From assembly GCF_058153355.1 (NCBI RefSeq), contig NZ_CM177019.1: a stretch of 64,000 nucleotides of DNA; one strand, 5' to 3'. The notes below the pieces were generated by a model, which saw only the letters and a program-made list of their open reading frames with translations, had not been told where the DNA came from and ran no database searches. The position numbers were made by a program, and so were the translations under genes. Below, one piece after another: positions 35,437 to 46,360 of this stretch; the first letter of the stretch is position 1; each line of letters begins with the position of its first letter.

Positions 35437-37101
<1,665 letters not shown>

Positions 37102-37143
37102 CAGGTCAGCACCGATGCCTGATAAGACGCTCGCTGCGTTTTA

Positions 37144-38562
37144 TCAGGCTCCTTTCCTCGCTTCTTCGTACGCTGCCAGCGTTCGCAGCCTTGCCTCTTT
37201 GTGATCAACTATCGGTTGCGGATAATCCAGCGTCACACCTGCTTTCTGCGCCCACTTCCACGGTTCATGCACCGCTTTCCCTGGTACATCACGCAACTCT
37301 GGTAACCACTGGCGGATAAACTCACCTTCGTGGTCAAATTTCTCGCCCTGAGTTGTCGGGTTGAAAATACGGAAATACGGTGCAGCATCAGTTCCAGTAG
37401 AAGCCGCCCATTGCCAGCCACCGTTATTGGCTGCCAAATCACCATCAATCAGTTGCGACATGAAATATCGCTCGCCTTCCCGCCAGTCGATCAGCAAATC
37501 TTTCACCAGAAAACTGGCAGTAATCATCCGCAGGCGATTATGCATCCAGCCAGCGCTGTTAAGCTGACGCATGGCCGCATCAACAATCGGGTATCCCGTT
37601 TTGCCTTCCTGCCAGGCCTTTAAATGCGCGGGATTGCTTTGCCACTGTACGCGATCGGTCCAGGCAATAAAGGGGCGATGCTTACACAGTGACGGGTGAT
37701 ACGTCATCAAATGACGGTAGAACTCGCGCCAGATCAGCTCATTAAGCCAGACGCTACCCGGTCCGCCTTCCAGCGCCTGCGGCTGTTCCGCCAACAGGCG
37801 ATGCAGACACTGGCGAGGCGATAACCTACCCGTTGCAAGGCTTGCAGACAAACGGCTGGTGCCTTCCACTGCCGGAAAATCACGCTGCTGATCGTACTGA
37901 CTCGCACCGTTCTGGCAAAACTGGCGTAATTGCGCAATCGCCGCTTTTTCTTCCACCGGGAAATGCGCGGTATCGAAAGACTGACGAGGGTAATTCAGCG
38001 TAATAGATGGCGCGGGATCTAATGATCCGCTACTCCGAACTTTTGGCGCAGCGACGCACTCCGGCATCCCTTCCCGCAGCCGTTTCAGCCAGGCATTCTT
38101 AAAAGGCGTAAAGACTTTGTACATCTCATGATTGCCAGTCATCACCGCCCCCGGCGGCAGGATCACGCTGTCATCGAACCCTTCACACACCACGTTACTC
38201 AGCGCTCTTTCAACTTCCACATCCCGCGCCCGCTCATTCACCTCATACTGATAGTTATAAAACAGATGGGTAACACGATTTTCCGCGCACACCTGTTTAA
38301 CTATTTCGACGCTGGCGGCAAAGTCATCCACTTCATGAAACAGCAAAGGAATGCCTTTTTCCGCCAGCGCGATTTGTAGCCCGTTCAGTTGTGCATTGAT
38401 AAATTCAGCCTGACGCGGCGACATATTATGCGCCGCCCACTGGCGTGGTGTAGCGATATACAACGCCAGCACGCGTGCAGACGAATAGCGGCAAGCGGCC
38501 GCCAGCGCGAGATTATCATGCAGACGTAAATCCTGGCGAAACCAGACCAGATGGGTAGTCAT
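37144..38562 (-). CDS. phr: Deoxyribodipyrimidine photolyase
   Basis: 472-aa ORF starting MTTHLVWFRQDLRLHDNLALAAA. Confidence 0.95.
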   Translation of the reverse strand: MTTHLVWFRQDLRLHDNLALAAACRYSSARVLALYIATPRQWAAHNMSPRQAEFINAQLNGLQIALAEKGIPLLFHEVDDFAASVEIVKQVCAENRVTHLFYNYQYEVNERARDVEVERALSNVVCEGFDDSVILPPGAVMTGNHEMYKVFTPFKNAWLKRLREGMPECVAAPKVRSSGSLDPAPSITLNYPRQSFDTAHFPVEEKAAIAQLRQFCQNGASQYDQQRDFPAVEGTSRLSASLATGRLSPRQCLHRLLAEQPQALEGGPGSVWLNELIWREFYRHLMTYHPSLCKHRPFIAWTDRVQWQSNPAHLKAWQEGKTGYPIVDAAMRQLNSAGWMHNRLRMITASFLVKDLLIDWREGERYFMSQLIDGDLAANNGGWQWAASTGTDAAPYFRIFNPTTQGEKFDHEGEFIRQWLPELRDVPGKAVHEPWKWAQKAGVTLDYPQPIVDHKEARLRTLAAYEEARKGA

Positions 38563-39068: not shown

Positions 39069-39153
39069 TACTGCTCCTGAACGGTTTACAGGAGTAAGTG
39101 TAGACGTTGGCAAATGATGTTTGTGAAGTTAATCCTGTTGTAGCAGGGCAAGA

Positions 39154-39977
39154 TTACGAAAGCACGCTCCCCGCAAGGACTGACGCCAGGTAGTTTCTGT
39201 CCATGGCTGCCCTTTCCATTCACACGTGAAATCAATAAGTTCATCAGGGACATCGCAAACAATGTGAAGACGGATTTCTTCTCTGCCGTGACTCTTTTCA
39301 CTAATTGCGTAACTGTCATGCTCTGGATTATTTAATTCTTTCAGTGAGAATTTTTCCTCAAAGGCTTTATTTAGCCGCCCCTGGTTTCCTTTTACAGCGA
39401 ATAAATAATCACCTCCCTGTTTTTGTATCTTCTCTGCAATATCTTTCTGGCAACCCATCGCATCAGTTGTGATGATTTTTCCTTTAATATCCAGCATGTT
39501 AAGAAGTTCAGGGATAGCTGTAATTTCATTTGATTTCTCATCCGTCCTGATCTGTCCGATGACCAGACTGTGCATTGTTGAGAACGCACTAATGACATGA
39601 ATCGCTCCCCTGCAGCGACTCTTGTCATAAGAATGCCGGAGCTTTTTTCCATCAATTGCAATGACGTCTTTATCATCTGAAGAATGGCAGTCACGCATCC
39701 AGTTAATAAAGCACTCGTGAAATTTTGCAGGACTGATACAGGATACAACTCTGGCAATGGTATCGTGAACAGGAATACCATTTTCAAAATCACCCTATTG
39801 CTTCAAAAAATCGAGATGTGTTTCCCCAAAATCCTCTATATCTTCTCAACCTTCTGCACCCGAAATAACGGCGCAAATAGTCAACAGTAGAATATCCGAT
39901 AATTTATGTTCCACTTTCCAGGCTTGTCTGTAATCGGGGATAATAGAAATATGTTCCATCAATTTTTTAAGTACCAT
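39154..39977 (-). pseudogene. H-repeat-associated (ISAs1-family) transposase pseudogene
   Basis: N-terminus [43 protein letters not shown] hits an in-frame TGA. Downstream frames carry [20 protein letters not shown]...[18 protein letters not shown] and the terminal [16 protein letters not shown], requiring a frameshift and an internal deletion after ...EWKG. Confidence 0.85.
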
Positions 39978-40370: not shown

Positions 40371-41192
40371 TCAGTATTGAGTTTCATTTGTGATCTCTAC
40401 ATTCACTCCTGATGGCTTCTCGCTAAATAAATATCTCATACTCTCATTCTCCATAATCACGGATATATTTAACCCTCCATGAATCCATTGATATGTAATA
40501 TTTTTATCATCAATCTTATAACTAAAATTCCCAATTGGTAACTTTTCCTTCAGATAATTATTCTCCTCATAACTAAGTGCTAGTAATTTATCATAGGCAC
40601 CTTTTAAATCAAAACCCTCAAAATAGCAATGTTCTTTTGATGAACCATCAAATTCTTTTCTGGGATTAGCATCATGACACCAAGTCGACCATTTTTCTTT
40701 TTTTTCCTCAGAAGTATGTTTTTTTTCATTGAAAAACAGCACATAATATTTCTCTGGGATTATTATCTGATCATTAATTTTTAAGATATCTCTATATGGC
40801 CCAGGACATTTATGAACAGAATCCATAATGGATATTTCTTCAGGAAAAAGTTTGCCTTCATGTTTAAATAATTTCCTGTACATACCAACTGTTGTTTGTG
40901 ATAAGTAATATGACAAGGGCTTTTTTTTAACTTCAACATAGTCAGTCGAGCATACGAGACTATTTTCCAATGAATAATCATTTATCGTTAGCTTTCGCCC
41001 ATCCATATTTATCACTACCTTACTGTATGTTTCATCAAGGGCACTTATTATAAGCGAATCATGTTTACCAAAAACATCGATATCTGAAACATTATGATAA
41101 ATCCATACGGTATTTTTAGTATTATCATTAGAATATGCGATACCATGAATAAAAAAAATCATTAGAAAGCCCATAAAAAATTTACCGCGCAT
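40371..41192 (-). CDS. Putative periplasmic immunity protein for the adjacent T6SS cell-wall-lytic effector
   Basis: 273-aa ORF with Sec-type signal peptide (MRGKFFMGFLMIFFIHGIAYS), Lys/Asn-rich, AT-rich codon usage, 19 bp downstream of the effector gene. No recognisable homology, so function is inferred from position. Confidence 0.6.
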   Translation of the reverse strand: MRGKFFMGFLMIFFIHGIAYSNDNTKNTVWIYHNVSDIDVFGKHDSLIISALDETYSKVVINMDGRKLTINDYSLENSLVCSTDYVEVKKKPLSYYLSQTTVGMYRKLFKHEGKLFPEEISIMDSVHKCPGPYRDILKINDQIIIPEKYYVLFFNEKKHTSEEKKEKWSTWCHDANPRKEFDGSSKEHCYFEGFDLKGAYDKLLALSYEENNYLKEKLPIGNFSYKIDDKNITYQWIHGGLNISVIMENESMRYLFSEKPSGVNVEITNETQY

Positions 41193-41211: not shown

Positions 41212-43977
41212 TCAATGTGATGAATCATAAACATTATTCAAAAATAGATTTTGTTCTTTTCGGCGTCGTATAACAAGGCCAGCAACTCCGCCATTTGTAA
41301 TATCAAGAAATTCATTGGAGGCACCTATATAATCCTTTTGATTAAGTTTAGAATTCAAATTCGGTGCCTTACTCATGCTCCCCATATTAAACAATAAACT
41401 TATTAACGCATCAAATTCGTACTGATATAAATCCACACTCACTGTTCTTTTAAGCTCACTAACAAAACCAGATAAACGCTCTTCAAATAACTCATCAGCT
41501 TTAGCAATTGTTATTCCATGCTGAAATTCTTCTGGTAAAACTATATCATTGCAACGTTGTGTAGCAATTAAATGTCCATAACCTATAGTACAGTAACCTT
41601 CTGAATCATTATATGCTGTTAGTTGTAAATATTCCCATTCTTTTATAAAACCCTTACCTTTATTTGATACATTCAAATCTGCAATGGCGATCCTTTCAGC
41701 AGTTTGTTCTTCGTTAAAACTATTGATGTACCCCTCCATCAATATATCAATTGGATCATGTAAATCATCCCGTCTATAAAATGGAGGTATTTGTGTATTA
41801 TTCGGCGGAGGCGCTCCATTGTTTCCTGGATAGTATTCAAAATGCAACATATAAACCACTTCTTCCCCAGGGATTATAACTGGAGGCCTCCCTGTATCAG
41901 GTTTAATCATCAACCCTGTTTTGGCAATTATTGCCCCTTGCATAATATGATCATTAATCTTTACTAAAATACTTGATGGATCAACTTCACCATACCGCAC
42001 ATAGAAATGCCGACCATCTCTAGTCGAGTGCTCAATCGTAACTTGCCAAGTACCGTAATAGTATCGAGAAATAGCTCTTACTATTCCGTTGCAAACCGAA
42101 ACAATATCAGACTTCGGTTCCGTATATAGATCACGCGCTCCATGTTTTCTATTACCATTATTACGATTTCGTCCAAATATAGCTTGAGAGGCATTTCGAT
42201 CTGTCAAGGCAGCAGCCCAAAAATAATTTTTCCACTTTCCATTTTTGTCATTATTAGGTTTTACTTTTAAAGGAAAAATAATTTGATTTGATTTTTTCTG
42301 AGATAATGAATCTAAAAACACAACCGGATGAAAATGCCACACAGCATCATCACTATTAAACGGAGATACCCCGCTCATCCACTCCAGATCCAGCTGCCAC
42401 TTCTCACAGTATGCCACTTCCTCTGTATCCAGATCTTTATAAAATCCTTCCCACCGCCCTGTCGAGCGCCCTCCGTACCATTCGCTGTGGTGTTTAACTA
42501 TCAGATGATTCACCACATTTCTCACCAGTGGTTCACGCACGATCAGCGCCTGTCTGATCTCTTCCTCCGTCACTTTTCCATCACCGTCCTGATCCATACC
42601 CGCCATCAGCTCACGATAAAAGGGCGGTACCTGCTCATACAGCCACTCATCTCCCTGTTCTGCGGCACGGCTTATTGAGTCAAACGCTTCCGGCACCCAT
42701 CCTTCGTACGGGCTGTACGTCATGTCACCGCTGCTGTTCTCCTCCAGCGGTTGAAAACCCAGCTTCAGTAAATCATACTGTCCGGCCTCTTCAACATCCT
42801 TTTGTGGCAGCCAGCCGGTTCCGGTGATATTAAACCACCACTGCTGCGATTCATCCGTGACTGGTGTCGTGGCTTCCCGCGGAAGAACGCGCTGAGCACC
42901 CAGCGTGGCTGCGGTTGCGGTAAATACCTCCTGTCCCGGAACGGCCTGCCGGGTGTATAAAATTATCCCTTTTGGTGCCAGAACAGTCCGTTTTTCTCCC
43001 TTAACGCCTGCCGGGTTGGATAAGAACTTTGGCATATTCGGGTCTGTACTCAGAACCTCCAGATGGACGAACCACTCGCGCTCAATCTCACCGCTTCCCT
43101 CGCCAGGATAATCCTCGCATCCCATAAATCCGACCGGTGTTCCGGCACTGACTTTCCACTCTTCCGTTTCGTCGACCGTCTGTACCGAGTCAAAAATGCC
43201 TTTTGCCTTCGCCTTCTGCATCCACTCAGGCATCAGCATCTGTATTTCGCCATCTGACTCCATCAGATCCGGATCCAGGGTCACCCAGTACTGCTCATTC
43301 CCCGGTTTATTGCCTTCCAGCAGGCGAACCAGTCCGAATGTCGTCAGGACCGGCTGGCCGTTATTGGTCACGTAAAAACGTCCGGTCCGGGATGACACAA
43401 ACCGATCTCCCGCATTAAGTGTCCTGTTTCCGCTGATTTTCGGGGGTATCCAGTACGTGGCATGATCTCCGCTTTCCTGCCCCTCGGGAAGGCCGTTCTT
43501 TCCCGGGATGTATCGGTGCAGCAATATGCCACCATGCCCGGTTTTAACTTTATAGCAGGGGGAGCCGGGATAATCGTTCACCGGGGCCAGATGCATATAG
43601 AGACAGTAAAATTCCAGCCAGCTTTCTTTTTTTTGCGGGTCTGGCTGGCACTGCGATTTCACCAGAACAAATGTGCTGCTGTAACGGAGTTGCTGCCCTT
43701 TGTAGGGGCCTTTCAGGTAATCATTATTTATCCGGTACGCCGCAATGGTGCCATCGGCCATAAACTGAAGAGGAACCGGTTCTCCGGTAGCGGCGGTATC
43801 CGGTTTCAGGGCTGATAACGGATTAGACACGTCACTGATATGTATCCCGCCGTGCCACAGCCCGTTTCCACCCAGCAGCCAGGTTCCGTGCGCTTCTTTG
43901 TCAATAAGCCGCATTATCTCATCCAGTGAGCGAAACTCTTTGCCTTCTTTATCCCTGATGGGATGGCTGATTTTCAT
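41212..43977 (-). CDS. VgrG-linked T6SS effector with C-terminal T4-lysozyme-like (GH24) muramidase domain and internal M23-peptidase-like domain
   Basis: 921 aa. Residues ~770-915 align motif-for-motif with T4 lysozyme (KEWEYLQLTAYNDSEGYCTIGYGHL vs ...[24 protein letters not shown]; Glu/Asp/Thr triad positions present). Residues ~605-716 carry HGARD...MLHFEYY, resembling M23 HxxxD...HxH. EF-hand-like loop DQDGDGKVTEEE at residues 462-473. Start lies 9 nt after the vgrG stop with an AGGA ribosome-binding site. Confidence 0.75.
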   Translation of the reverse strand: MKISHPIRDKEGKEFRSLDEIMRLIDKEAHGTWLLGGNGLWHGGIHISDVSNPLSALKPDTAATGEPVPLQFMADGTIAAYRINNDYLKGPYKGQQLRYSSTFVLVKSQCQPDPQKKESWLEFYCLYMHLAPVNDYPGSPCYKVKTGHGGILLHRYIPGKNGLPEGQESGDHATYWIPPKISGNRTLNAGDRFVSSRTGRFYVTNNGQPVLTTFGLVRLLEGNKPGNEQYWVTLDPDLMESDGEIQMLMPEWMQKAKAKGIFDSVQTVDETEEWKVSAGTPVGFMGCEDYPGEGSGEIEREWFVHLEVLSTDPNMPKFLSNPAGVKGEKRTVLAPKGIILYTRQAVPGQEVFTATAATLGAQRVLPREATTPVTDESQQWWFNITGTGWLPQKDVEEAGQYDLLKLGFQPLEENSSGDMTYSPYEGWVPEAFDSISRAAEQGDEWLYEQVPPFYRELMAGMDQDGDGKVTEEEIRQALIVREPLVRNVVNHLIVKHHSEWYGGRSTGRWEGFYKDLDTEEVAYCEKWQLDLEWMSGVSPFNSDDAVWHFHPVVFLDSLSQKKSNQIIFPLKVKPNNDKNGKWKNYFWAAALTDRNASQAIFGRNRNNGNRKHGARDLYTEPKSDIVSVCNGIVRAISRYYYGTWQVTIEHSTRDGRHFYVRYGEVDPSSILVKINDHIMQGAIIAKTGLMIKPDTGRPPVIIPGEEVVYMLHFEYYPGNNGAPPPNNTQIPPFYRRDDLHDPIDILMEGYINSFNEEQTAERIAIADLNVSNKGKGFIKEWEYLQLTAYNDSEGYCTIGYGHLIATQRCNDIVLPEEFQHGITIAKADELFEERLSGFVSELKRTVSVDLYQYEFDALISLLFNMGSMSKAPNLNSKLNQKDYIGASNEFLDITNGGVAGLVIRRRKEQNLFLNNVYDSSH

Positions 43978-43986
43978 GTTCAGTCC

Positions 43987-46185
43987 TTATCGTGAGAATC
44001 TTCCCGGCCGTTGTGGCGGTACCTTATCCTGCTGGGGAGGATCAAAGGCTTCCTGTACACTTTTCCGTGGTGGCTCCGCCCCTTCAGTTCCAGGTCCGCC
44101 ATTGTCATAATCTGCCAGCGCTTTCAAAACCGCCGGTCGTAGCGTCGGCACCGGCGTTCCCGGACTACCGCCGCTATTGAGATTGATTTTCGGCCCGACG
44201 ATGTCCACGCCCCCTGAATGGATGACCACAAACGAACCACCCACCTTTAGGGTGATTTTACCGCCACTCTCCAGTACGATTTCATTCCGGACCTTCATTC
44301 CCAGCGCACCGGTAATCTTCCTCGCCAGGTCGCCCTTCACCTCCAGACTGTGCTTTCCCTCCACCAGGCTGATATGGTTCCCCGTCGTCTTATGCTCCTG
44401 CTTCCCTTCCACCGTCACTTTACGGTCGTTTCTGACATACAGGCCGTCATCGTGACTCACGCTCACCGTCCGGTCATTCGTCACCTTCAGCGTCTGGTCA
44501 TTACGTACCGTTATGCGCCGGTCGTTCGCCACCGTGATACTCTGGTCGTGACCCCCTTCTTTTCTGGTGCCGACCTCAACCGTCTGCCCCTTCACCACCC
44601 TTATCTTCTGGTCGTTACCGATGGTCTCCGTATGGTCATGCTTCACGTCCGTCGTCCGGTCGTTAAGCACCTCCGTGTCCATGTTCTTCTGCGCGTGGAT
44701 ATACACCTGCTCACTGTCCGTCGCATCCTCGAAACGCAGTTCATTAAAGCCGCTTCCTTTATAGGTCTTCGAGCGGATGGTCATCTGCGTCCGCGTGCCC
44801 GGTAAATCCCCCGGTGAACGGTTATCTTCATGGTAGGTCCGCCCCGTCACAATGGGCTGGTCCGGGTCGCCGTTCAGAAAGTCCACTATCACTTCCTGAC
44901 CCACACGCGGTATCGCCAGATTGCCGAACCCCGGTCCCGCCCATGCCTGCGACACCCGTATCCAGCACGAACTCTCCTCCGTCATCCCGTGATAACGGTC
45001 CCAGTGAAACTTCACCCGTACCCGGCCATGCTCGTCGCAGAATATCTCCTCACCCTTCGGCCCGGTCACGATGGCACTCTGCGGGCCGTCCACCTTCGGC
45101 TTCGGCAGCGGCGCGTGACGCCACGTCCTGTCTGCCGGTATCACCTCAAACTGATTGCTCAGTGTCGTCCCTTCACCGTGACTCCCGTGCAGCGCCTGCG
45201 GCTGTTCTCCCCGCAGTGTGCTTCCCACAACCTGCCATTCCCGGTTCAGCGTCTCTGAGGGATGGCCCGTCAGCCGGAACCGCGTTCCCGGCCACAGCCG
45301 CGCCGTGTTACACACCCCGCTCGCCGTCTCCGCCCCGTTCCGCCACCCTTCCGTCTGGTAACGCGCAAAATCCTGGCCATGCTGCTCATCCTTGAAACGC
45401 CCCGGATAATCAAATATCTCGTACTGCGTTCCCTGCCCGTTCAGGCTCTCCCCGTCATGGCTGTAGTACCCCGGCCACCCCGGCGTTTTGAACGTATAAT
45501 CCTGCGTCTCCACCGACGCCACGCTTATCTGCGCACGGTAACGAAACTCACTGATGTACTCCGTCGTTCCCCCGGTCGTGGTATTCGGGTTAAACGCCAG
45601 CGCCCCCATTCCCGTCAGCCCCGCCACGTCATCACACACCGCCAGCTTCTGCTCCGGCCCTTCCTGACCGCAGCGCTCATAAAAGAAGATACCTTCCTCC
45701 GCCCACAGCCGGGTCAGGAATGCCAGGTCGCTCTCCCCGTACTGCACGCAGAACTCCCGCGCCGGGTGCGCCTCATAGAACAGCGGCATCCACGCCGTCA
45801 CCCCGTTCTCTCTCAGAAGCTGTGCTGATATCGTCTGAATGTCCTGCTGCTGGAAGATACGGAAGTTCTGCCGTAACCCTGCCCGCCACAGCGGCGGGCT
45901 GATGCTCAGGGAATAACGCATCTGCCAGTCGTTGTTCTCACCGAGCTGCACCTCCGTCACGATACCGCTGACGTAACGCTGCGGGATATCACCCTGCCAG
46001 ACCGTCAGCACCGCGCTCTTCTCCAGAAAATCCTCCGCCATCAGGTCGGACAGCCCGCTGGCGATATCCACATCCAGGATGAACGACGTGCAGTGGTGCT
46101 GGTACAGACGGAAGCTCACCACCGCCGTCGCCATCTCCACGATACCGTCCACCGACAGCGTGAAACGTAATCCTTCTGAGGACAT
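43987..46185 (-). CDS. vgrG: Type VI secretion system spike protein VgrG
   Basis: N-terminus MSSEGLRFTLSVDGI and gp27/gp5-like VgrG sequence (FRLYQ..., ISPPLWRAGLRQNFRIFQ, EGIFFYE). The ORF track offers an upstream ATG at 46218; 46185 is preferred by comparison with typical VgrG N-termini. Confidence 0.9.
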   Translation of the reverse strand: MSSEGLRFTLSVDGIVEMATAVVSFRLYQHHCTSFILDVDIASGLSDLMAEDFLEKSAVLTVWQGDIPQRYVSGIVTEVQLGENNDWQMRYSLSISPPLWRAGLRQNFRIFQQQDIQTISAQLLRENGVTAWMPLFYEAHPAREFCVQYGESDLAFLTRLWAEEGIFFYERCGQEGPEQKLAVCDDVAGLTGMGALAFNPNTTTGGTTEYISEFRYRAQISVASVETQDYTFKTPGWPGYYSHDGESLNGQGTQYEIFDYPGRFKDEQHGQDFARYQTEGWRNGAETASGVCNTARLWPGTRFRLTGHPSETLNREWQVVGSTLRGEQPQALHGSHGEGTTLSNQFEVIPADRTWRHAPLPKPKVDGPQSAIVTGPKGEEIFCDEHGRVRVKFHWDRYHGMTEESSCWIRVSQAWAGPGFGNLAIPRVGQEVIVDFLNGDPDQPIVTGRTYHEDNRSPGDLPGTRTQMTIRSKTYKGSGFNELRFEDATDSEQVYIHAQKNMDTEVLNDRTTDVKHDHTETIGNDQKIRVVKGQTVEVGTRKEGGHDQSITVANDRRITVRNDQTLKVTNDRTVSVSHDDGLYVRNDRKVTVEGKQEHKTTGNHISLVEGKHSLEVKGDLARKITGALGMKVRNEIVLESGGKITLKVGGSFVVIHSGGVDIVGPKINLNSGGSPGTPVPTLRPAVLKALADYDNGGPGTEGAEPPRKSVQEAFDPPQQDKVPPQRPGRFSR

Positions 46186-46360
46186 ATAAACCCCATAGCT
46201 ACCGCACTCATGGTGCAAACCATACGGGCTTATAAGAAAGGCTTAAGTGAGATATCTGCCAGATAGCAACTATTAGGAAAATATTTATATATATTTCATG
46301 AATATATATTTCGGTTGGTATAACGGTGTCTAAATATTCCTCTGAACATCTTCCTGATAC

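Follow-up and report, generated by a model that had tools for sequence, protein, structure and literature searches.

The 64,000-nucleotide stretch of DNA analysed here (contig NZ_CM177019.1 of NCBI RefSeq assembly GCF_058153355.1; hereafter the window) carries on its minus strand a tight operon of three genes, in which a vgrG gene is followed by an effector gene and an immunity gene. The vgrG gene at 43,987–46,218 encodes a type VI secretion system (T6SS) spike protein with 743 residues, as indicated by its matches to TIGR03361 (E 5.2e-176) and TIGR01646 (E 7.4e-127), and the C-terminus of this VgrG consists of a Pro/Gly-rich linker and then the tail ...PPQRPGRFSR. The effector gene, the middle one, occupies positions 41,212–43,977 and encodes 921 residues, in which the open reading frame, the Pfam matches and the homologue search delimit a WHIX domain, an M23-like domain and a GH24 muramidase domain. 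The immunity gene (40,371–41,192; GC content approximately 0.34) encodes 273 residues, including a Sec signal peptide. The gap between the stop codon of vgrG and the ATG of the effector gene is 9 bases and contains an AAGGA Shine-Dalgarno sequence, and that between the stop codon of the effector gene and the immunity ATG is 19 bases, with AAGGA placed 6 nucleotides ahead of the ATG. An earlier note on this DNA, made from the sequence alone, had proposed a secreted antibacterial effector, and both the vgrG operon and the homology to WHIX proteins support that proposal. It is very likely that this gene, linked to vgrG, encodes an effector of the WHIX class whose GH24 domain is intact.

In the WHIX paper (Fridman et al., PLoS Biol 2025, PMC12135965), what defines the class is an N-terminal domain of two parts that bears a WHxxxH motif, the domain is fused almost exclusively to peptidoglycan-targeting domains, and the genes usually adjoin vgrG, with signal-peptide immunity genes next. 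It was found there by experiment that WHIX is enough for secretion through the T6SS and that it binds the cognate VgrG at its C-terminal tail. In the present effector, the corresponding part is residues 1–556 (42,310–43,977, minus strand; GC content 0.52–0.55), which comprises a core that is M23-like, SH3b-like parts and a helical region containing an EF-hand. The WHxxxH motif, from which the name WHIX is derived according to that definition, reads W41-H42-G-G-I-H46 (43,840–43,857, minus strand), and W41, H42, G43 and H46 are each conserved in at least 90% of 49 homologues. The same homologues also conserve Y127, M128 and H129, as well as H305, E307, W547, H548 and H550, which are the invariants of the second WHIX region. 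Residues 1–556 are identical at 553 of 556 positions (99.5%) to WP_000703217.1, a member of the published dataset that is present in both the sequence file and the tree of the WHIX paper, and the last 100 residues of the effector are 74% identical to WP_032211049.1, the "Lysozyme-like" example of that paper. The tail ...RPGRFSR, which follows the Pro-rich linker of the VgrG encoded here, resembles the published VgrG4 tail ...SFSGR.

In the database search, the N-terminal 61% or so of the effector (about 560 residues) was common to many enterobacterial proteins at 45–99% identity, and the C-termini carried on it varied among GH19 chitinase-like domains, pesticin-like muramidases, GH108, PF11860 muramidases, CHAP and M23 with Phage_lysozyme. 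A constant N-terminus with swapped C-termini corresponds to the pattern of polymorphic toxins, as judged from these homologues. Residues 1–556 are thus assigned by homology to the WHIX domain, that is, to the predicted secretion and loading part of the protein, and not by default to a second toxin module.

All the motifs quoted in the earlier note are present, displaced by at most one residue: WHGGIH (41–46), YCLYMHL (124–130) and ILLHRY (151–156) in the WHIX domain and, further downstream, HGARD (612–616), YVRYGEV (659–665), MLHFE (710–714), KEWE (779–782), NDSEG (790–794) and CTIGYGH (796–802). The three N-terminal motifs had been regarded as echoes of M23. The predicted fold of the WHIX core is indeed M23-like, and WHGGIH and YCLYMHL are genuine conserved features of this core because their residues are conserved across the 49 homologues. 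ILLHRY is not conserved, since the homologues have Arg at position 154, and it was rejected as a chance match. The second WHIX region also contains a canonical EF-hand calcium-binding loop, DQDGDGKVTEEE (residues 462–473; 42,559–42,594, minus strand; Pfam EF-hand_1, E 9.8e-4). The region of this loop has the lowest confidence in the structural model, with predicted local distance difference test (pLDDT) values of 56–78. In the related effector TseP, calcium gave no restoration of the amidase activity (PMC11893102).

The WHIX domain ends at a sharp breakpoint at position 42,310 (codon 556/557), right behind the conserved HPVVFLD. Identity to WP_000703217.1 ends abruptly at residue 557; up to the breakpoint the protein is 99.5% identical to an E. 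coli WHIX-GH19 effector, to which the sequence downstream of residue 556 is unrelated. The GC content, which is 0.52–0.55 over residues 1–500, falls to 0.29–0.40 beyond and stays at approximately 0.34 through the immunity gene. We propose that the low-GC cassette beginning at residue 557 has been swapped horizontally. The clean junction behind HPVVFLD556 illustrates how a toxin-immunity cassette can be exchanged on a constant loading domain.

The C-terminal part of the cassette, residues 770–915 (41,233–41,670, minus strand), is a GH24 muramidase domain of the T4/P22 type. Residues 779–908 match Pfam Phage_lysozyme (PF00959) with an E-value of 7.5e-25 over the whole model (1–125 of 125), and GH24 endolysins in the PDB match the effector at E-values from 2.5e-16 to 2e-9, the best being 8app at 2.5e-16. 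In the HMMER alignment, residues 11–117 of T4 lysozyme correspond to residues 782–876 of the effector, so that E782, D791 and T797 fall on E11, D20 and T26 of T4 lysozyme with identical spacings of 9 and 6. The Glu and Asp of this triad are invariant in 12 homologues, in which the third position is conserved as Thr or Ser. The claim of the earlier note that the C-terminus is a muramidase resembling T4 lysozyme, with the catalytic Glu, Asp and Thr, is therefore borne out, and by sequence criteria the domain is an intact muramidase. A phage endolysin origin of the gene was also considered, since the best NCBIfam match of the effector is a gene-transfer-agent endolysin, far under the cutoff of that family, and was rejected because the gene sits in an operon with vgrG and its product begins with a WHIX domain.

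Between the WHIX and GH24 domains lies a variant M23-fold domain (residues 566–750; 41,728–42,282, minus strand), which was delimited from the family profile, the conservation and the structure-profile alignments. Its match to Pfam M23 is partial (E 4.3e-5, model positions 2–73 of 96), and the PDB search with the single M23-like sequence gave no match; only the family profile reached M23 structures. The profile built from 54 relatives, each of which individually matches Pfam M23 (54 of 54), matches the M23 peptidases StM23, Csd3/Pgp3, ShyA and LytM in the PDB at E 3e-10, and the domain shows the M23 beta-sheet fold. When residues 566–750 were searched with HMMER against 1.84 billion representative sequences, 438 clusters were obtained at E ≤ 1e-3, including 61 at E ≤ 1e-30. 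A signature of 14 residues, R605, R610, H612, D616, H650, R661, Y662, E664, M710, H712, E714, R735, R736 and D741, is nearly invariant across the 150 best representatives, which are at most 50% identical to each other; in short, it reads R..R.H...D / H / RYGE / MLHxE / RR..D. Additional conserved segments are found at the N-terminal side (FPL..KP.N) and at the C-terminal side (PF.RR.DL.DP).

H612 and D616 align to the zinc ligands of the HxxxD motif in StM23 and to H32 and D36 of lysostaphin (hhalign 97%), and His and Asp are present at these positions in 143 and 146 of 151 aligned sequences, respectively. In place of the canonical HxH motif the domain has M710-L-H712. In both alignments H712 is the second His, a zinc ligand, which is kept, and M710 occupies the position of the first His; Met is found there in 142 of 143 non-gap sequences. 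A review of M23 enzymes gives a catalytic role, and not that of a ligand, to two histidines: the first in HxH and the central one (H260 of LytM). The earlier note had read MLHFE as a replacement of HxH; the motif is indeed altered, and what is lost is the first, catalytic His, with the zinc ligand remaining. For the central catalytic His (H260 of LytM, H82 of mature lysostaphin), no His is present within residues 659–667. The position had been assigned to an Arg, R661, which the alignments do not bear out: it falls on the invariant E664 in the StM23 alignment, where YGH is matched to YGE, and on the variable D666 in the lysostaphin alignment. From these alignments, E664 is most likely the counterpart of the central His. 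The invariant R605, 7 residues ahead of H612, lies roughly at the site of the oxyanion-stabilising Arg of EnpA and Csd3. The view of the domain as one of M23 fold whose catalytic motifs are not the canonical ones is supported by the profile match to PDB structures together with M710 and the lack of a central His.

The domain also occurs apart from its present partners. In 72 of the 150 representatives it is the C-terminal-most domain, ending at most 25 residues from the terminus, and for 106 of the 150 a single-sequence search, at its sensitivity, gave no match to either query, GH24 or WHIX. One relative, P0179, is a VgrG with the M23-like domain as a C-terminal extension, in which only Phage_GPD and Peptidase_M23 are recognised by Pfam; P0204 and P0156 carry the domain on PAAR-like DUF4280 proteins, and P0196 is encoded downstream of a vgrG gene. 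The N-terminal fragments of P0215 and P0228, read by eye, resemble the ends of Rhs cores. Because the zinc ligands and the signature are nearly invariant, and because the domain is placed at C-termini and fused to VgrG and DUF4280 proteins, it behaves in sequence like a toxin domain whose metal site is kept by strong purifying selection, not like a decaying one.

The immunity protein had no match in Pfam, PDB or NCBIfam. It is divided into an N-terminal domain (approximately residues 22–175; 40,668–41,129, minus strand) and a C-terminal domain (residues 180–273; 40,374–40,655, minus strand), which differ in their relatives. Proteins of 278, 293 and 306 residues lie behind M23-like+GH24 cassettes in three other loci, from Enterobacter, Citrobacter and a metagenome contig, and the proteins of 273–306 residues are mutually homologous along both halves. 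On the metagenome contig the carrier is a DUF4280 protein instead of a WHIX protein, and an immunity protein of the same type (approximately 280–306 residues) nevertheless follows the cassette. Since homologous immunity proteins trail the cassette in other loci, even with a DUF4280 carrier, the comparison indicates that the M23-like+GH24 cassette and its immunity gene travel as a unit.

Where the M23-like domain forms the end of the effector, the genes that come next encode proteins of approximately 145–163 residues with a signal or lipobox sequence. In hmmsearch, the profile of the long immunity proteins matched three small proteins: L013_160, encoded after the effector P0161 (49.5 bits); L006_161, encoded after the VgrG-M23-like fusion (35.6 bits); and L011_157, a small open reading frame upstream of the M23-like effector P0186 (27.5 bits). 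The comparison by hhalign gave 95.7% (E 9.6e-9) with L006_161 and 97.7% (E 1.8e-12) with a profile of L013_160, L006_161 and L011_157. The matching stretch is C-terminal, residues 180–270, which makes the C-terminal domain homologous to putative immunity proteins of effectors that have the M23-like domain alone. The N-terminal domain is absent from the proteins of approximately 160 residues behind such effectors, and in the loci read it occurs only in the proteins of 273–306 residues behind M23-like+GH24 cassettes. These single-domain relatives were obtained by reading the loci of effectors with only the M23-like domain; word-indexed homologue searches with the immunity sequence or profile returned close two-domain relatives and no single-domain ones. 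Genes for 248 and 212 residues after the DUF4280-M23-like protein (locus L008) and a truncated gene for 88 residues (L007) had no significant similarity to the immunity protein. The most economical reading of these matches is that the C-terminal domain would neutralise the M23-like module. The N-terminal domain, seen only with GH24-containing cassettes, is by elimination the one that would neutralise the lysozyme. The statement of the earlier note that only one immunity gene follows the effector is correct as to the gene, which encodes a protein of two domains.

Two of the loci read show arrays of related modules. On a metagenome contig (L011, 199–6854), peptidoglycan toxins are arrayed in pairs with small proteins: two M23-like effectors, one Tlde1/M15-like protein and one CHAP-like protein are each followed by a signal-peptide gene for 135–173 residues. 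Some of these genes (L011_145, L011_159 and L011_163) fall in a second candidate immunity family, together with L012_150, which has no significant relationship to the immunity protein of the window. In Enterobacter hormaechei (L003/L004, 8968–11406), a full-length homologue of 921 residues and its 278-residue immunity gene lie inside the main T6SS cluster; downstream of them are a 264-residue fragment of the second WHIX region, a 415-residue CHAP-like orphan and a gene for 119 residues, an arrangement of tandem displaced WHIX cargo modules.

The locus as a whole is read as encoding a VgrG-loaded WHIX effector of the T6SS with GH24 and zinc M23-fold toxins, countered by one immunity protein of two domains; we regard this reading as probable, clearly less firmly than the class assignment given above. 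The effector would be delivered as VgrG-loaded cargo into the periplasm of rival Gram-negative cells, where the cassette behind residue 556 would bring two modules that attack the cell wall. Residues 1–556 would cap the C-terminal tail of the upstream-encoded VgrG and mediate export. The GH24 muramidase is expected to cut the glycan strand by means of E782, D791 and T797. In the zinc-binding M23-fold domain, E664, which may act as a general base, and M710 most likely stand in place of the two catalytic histidines, and the target of this domain would most probably be a peptide or amide bond in the stem or the cross-link of peptidoglycan. The producer would be shielded by the periplasmic protein of 273 residues, with its C-terminal domain directed against the M23-like module and its N-terminal domain against the lysozyme. 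That the M23-like module is itself toxic, probably by hydrolysis, and is answered by the C-terminal immunity domain is held with almost the same confidence, somewhat on the favourable side. A wider proposal, that residues 566–750 represent an uncharacterised, widespread catalytic variant of M23, in which the zinc triad is joined by Glu instead of the two catalytic histidines, with its own immunity family, a stand-alone domain of T6SS and polymorphic toxins that is here paired with a lysozyme and has its immunity fused accordingly, is made tentatively, at slightly less than an even chance.

Several observations weigh against this interpretation. Canonical M23 enzymes use two histidines for catalysis, both of which are missing here, and the equivalent of the central His differs by two positions between the StM23 and lysostaphin alignments. 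Elsewhere, the loss of both histidines is characteristic of LECT2 and of LytM factors that are not catalytic. The small proteins encoded downstream of M23-like effectors are called immunity proteins by their position and their signal or lipobox sequences, a second family of such proteins (L011_145, L011_159, L011_163 and L012_150) reaches just 16% in hhalign with the same region aligned, and the pairing of the N-terminal immunity domain with GH24 is reached by elimination. No biochemical work on the effector or on the variant M23 subfamily was found in the literature, and no T6SS core genes lie within the 64-kb window. The absence of the two histidines, together with the presence of just one immunity gene and the well-known non-enzymatic degenerate M23 folds of EnvC, NlpD, DipM and LECT2, would also suit the alternative that only GH24 is toxic and that residues 566–750 are a catalytically dead module for peptidoglycan binding or targeting; in a Salmonella relative it was the endolysin domain alone that was tested and found toxic (PMC12992299). 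The earlier note had leaned toward such degenerate modules on account of the single immunity gene. However, degenerate LytM factors have lost the zinc ligands, whereas all three are invariant in residues 566–750; the frequent C-terminal-most placement, and the VgrG fusion in which the M23-like domain is the sole recognised effector domain, are not what a targeting module would lead one to expect; and a pure binding domain would need no immunity, whereas effectors with only the M23-like domain are trailed by small genes for signal-peptide proteins or lipoproteins that are related by homology to the C-terminal immunity domain. Because the zinc ligands and signature are kept, such effectors exist and the C-terminal immunity domain is homologous to their putative immunity proteins, the reading with two toxin modules is favoured, and a catalytically dead module is considered improbable. 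A toxic M23-like module that does not hydrolyse peptidoglycan, acting instead by activating amidases or autolysins of the prey in the manner of EnvC and NlpD or by sequestering a periplasmic target, is regarded as less probable still, since the zinc triad, the Arg at the oxyanion position and the invariant Glu at or near the place of the catalytic His are features that a working metallohydrolase would retain, and EnvC and NlpD lack these ligands.

A different question is whether the WHIX domain adds a further activity to the two modules of the cassette, as a zinc-dependent N-acetylmuramoyl-L-alanine amidase. The N-terminal half of TseP was reported to be such an enzyme, whose activity was lost on mutation of H19, H23, H109, H339, H359 and E539, and the same study superposed this half on the M23 peptidase 3SLU (PMC11893102); two further TseP homologues behaved alike. 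In the present effector, W41-H42...H46, Y127-M128-H129, H305/E307 and H548/H550 are conserved and the predicted fold is M23-like, although the TseP residues are likened to these by their published description and not residue by residue. In contrast, the WHIX paper, in the portions compared, found WHIX alone to be non-toxic in the E. coli periplasm and gave its role as capping of the VgrG tail (PMC12135965). The two papers thus disagree about an amidase activity of WHIX, and we consider this additional activity unlikely here, but less so than either of the alternatives on the M23-like module. If WHIX were also an amidase as claimed for TseP, the effector would attack three different peptidoglycan bonds.

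The operon belongs to an island located between ybfA/kdpFA and ybgA/phr/dtpD, a position that vgrG islands also occupy in strain N96. Toward ybgA, the island is bounded by a frameshifted remnant of an ISAs1/H-repeat (ybfD-like) transposase (39,129–39,977, minus strand), which lies between the immunity gene and ybgA as fragments of open reading frames in several frames; the same element is annotated there in the strains N96 and MFDS1022581. At the other end of the operon, the vgrG open reading frame as listed opens at a TTG (46,185–46,218), and the VgrG profile match begins at residue 20; the true start is probably an internal ATG (MSSEGLRF...) 11 codons inside the TTG frame. Of the 5,423 E. 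coli records that match the flanking dtpD/phr DNA (35,620–38,562), 5,404 are 90–95% identical to it, and a handful reach 97.6%. Because this housekeeping DNA is just 90–95% identical to nearly all E. coli records, the host is probably a divergent or cryptic lineage of Escherichia, not a typical E. coli.

Among 5,426 complete E. coli genomes, the M23-like+GH24 cassette was found in one, that of strain N96, at 99.8% identity, where it is a 5'-truncated orphan downstream of a different vgrG-pyocin pair. The site in N96 (NZ_CM169999.1; L001, 4001–10757) is the same chromosomal site and contains vgrG and a gene for an S-type pyocin effector with the matching immunity gene, then a transposase fragment and the orphan effector copy of 551 residues with its own immunity gene, with a group II intron and an IS66 element nearby; it looks like a graveyard or reservoir of effectors. 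In MFDS1022581 (L002, 3352–4409), a WHIX-GH19 effector and an immunity gene for 136 residues are followed by ISAs1 fragments, beyond which orphan pieces are annotated as "EF-hand domain-containing protein" and "N-acetylmuramidase family protein". These pieces appear to be another displaced C-terminal module of a WHIX effector.

The analysis assigns a rare gene of an Escherichia vgrG island to the WHIX effector class and accounts for all three M23-like signals of the earlier note, and it argues by comparative genomics alone against the reading of the M23-like domain as degenerate. Should the variant M23 domain prove to be an active hydrolase, it would represent a new catalytic solution in a well-studied family of peptidoglycan hydrolases, as well as a new toxin/immunity family that is found fused to VgrG and PAAR-like carriers. 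The domain would then matter in practice for the engineering of lysins, and for WHIX a use as a delivery chassis has been suggested.

As for known systems, the effector belongs to subclass I of WHIX (PMC12135965), as seen in its WHxxxH N-terminal domain, its position directly downstream of vgrG, its peptidoglycan-targeting C-terminus and its signal-peptide immunity gene. In the portions of that paper compared here, "Lysozyme-like" C-termini are counted in 432 proteins of the class; the C-terminus is classed by one domain, and an M23-fold domain between WHIX and lysozyme is not described. The "double-blade" effectors treated there carry toxins on either side of WHIX and have two separate immunity genes, whereas here both cargo domains are C-terminal and the immunity is one fused gene. 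The same domain order is reported for SARI_02625 of Salmonella enterica subsp. arizonae SPI-21 (Front Microbiol 2026, PMC12992299), which has an EF-hand, M23 and an endolysin domain with an E/D/T triad, and which is 1,032 residues long compared with 921 here. Its immunity protein SARI_02624 has 276 residues with a signal peptide, compared with 273 here; competition assays showed the two proteins to be an effector and its immunity protein, and toxicity in the periplasm was found for the endolysin domain. WHIX is never named in that paper, and in the parts of it consulted neither the catalytic residues of M23 nor a two-domain immunity protein is treated.

TseP of Aeromonas dhakensis (eLife 2025, PMC11893102) is likewise a VgrG-dependent chimera of a WHIX-type N-terminal domain and a lysozyme C-terminal domain, with halves that differ in GC content and one immunity protein that binds both halves. 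Compared by its description, it differs in that it is presented as two domains, the second activity being ascribed to the N-terminal domain itself. Tse4 of Acinetobacter baumannii (Le et al. 2021, bioRxiv 10.1101/2021.03.04.433973) is also bifunctional, combining glycan cleavage with an M23-type zinc peptidase, and a single immunity protein was reported for it. Unlike the present effector, it consists of LysM, a gp144-like lytic transglycosylase and the peptidase, with the order reversed, another glycosidase family and no WHIX; the effector described here has no LysM or SLT/gp144-type match, and its GH24 domain is C-terminal to the peptidase-like domain. The domain order and the effector type are thus already known from SARI_02625 and from Tse4 and TseP, which are likewise bifunctional T6SS effectors against peptidoglycan, each with a single immunity gene. 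The variant M23 active site and the modular fused immunity protein appear to be undescribed in the portions of the related literature compared. With respect to canonical M23 enzymes (LytM, lysostaphin, ShyA, Csd3 and StM23), the first His of HxH is Met here and the central His is Glu or absent. With respect to EnvC and NlpD, the degenerate LytM factors that have lost the zinc ligands, the domain differs in the opposite direction, as it retains all three of these ligands in a nearly invariant form.

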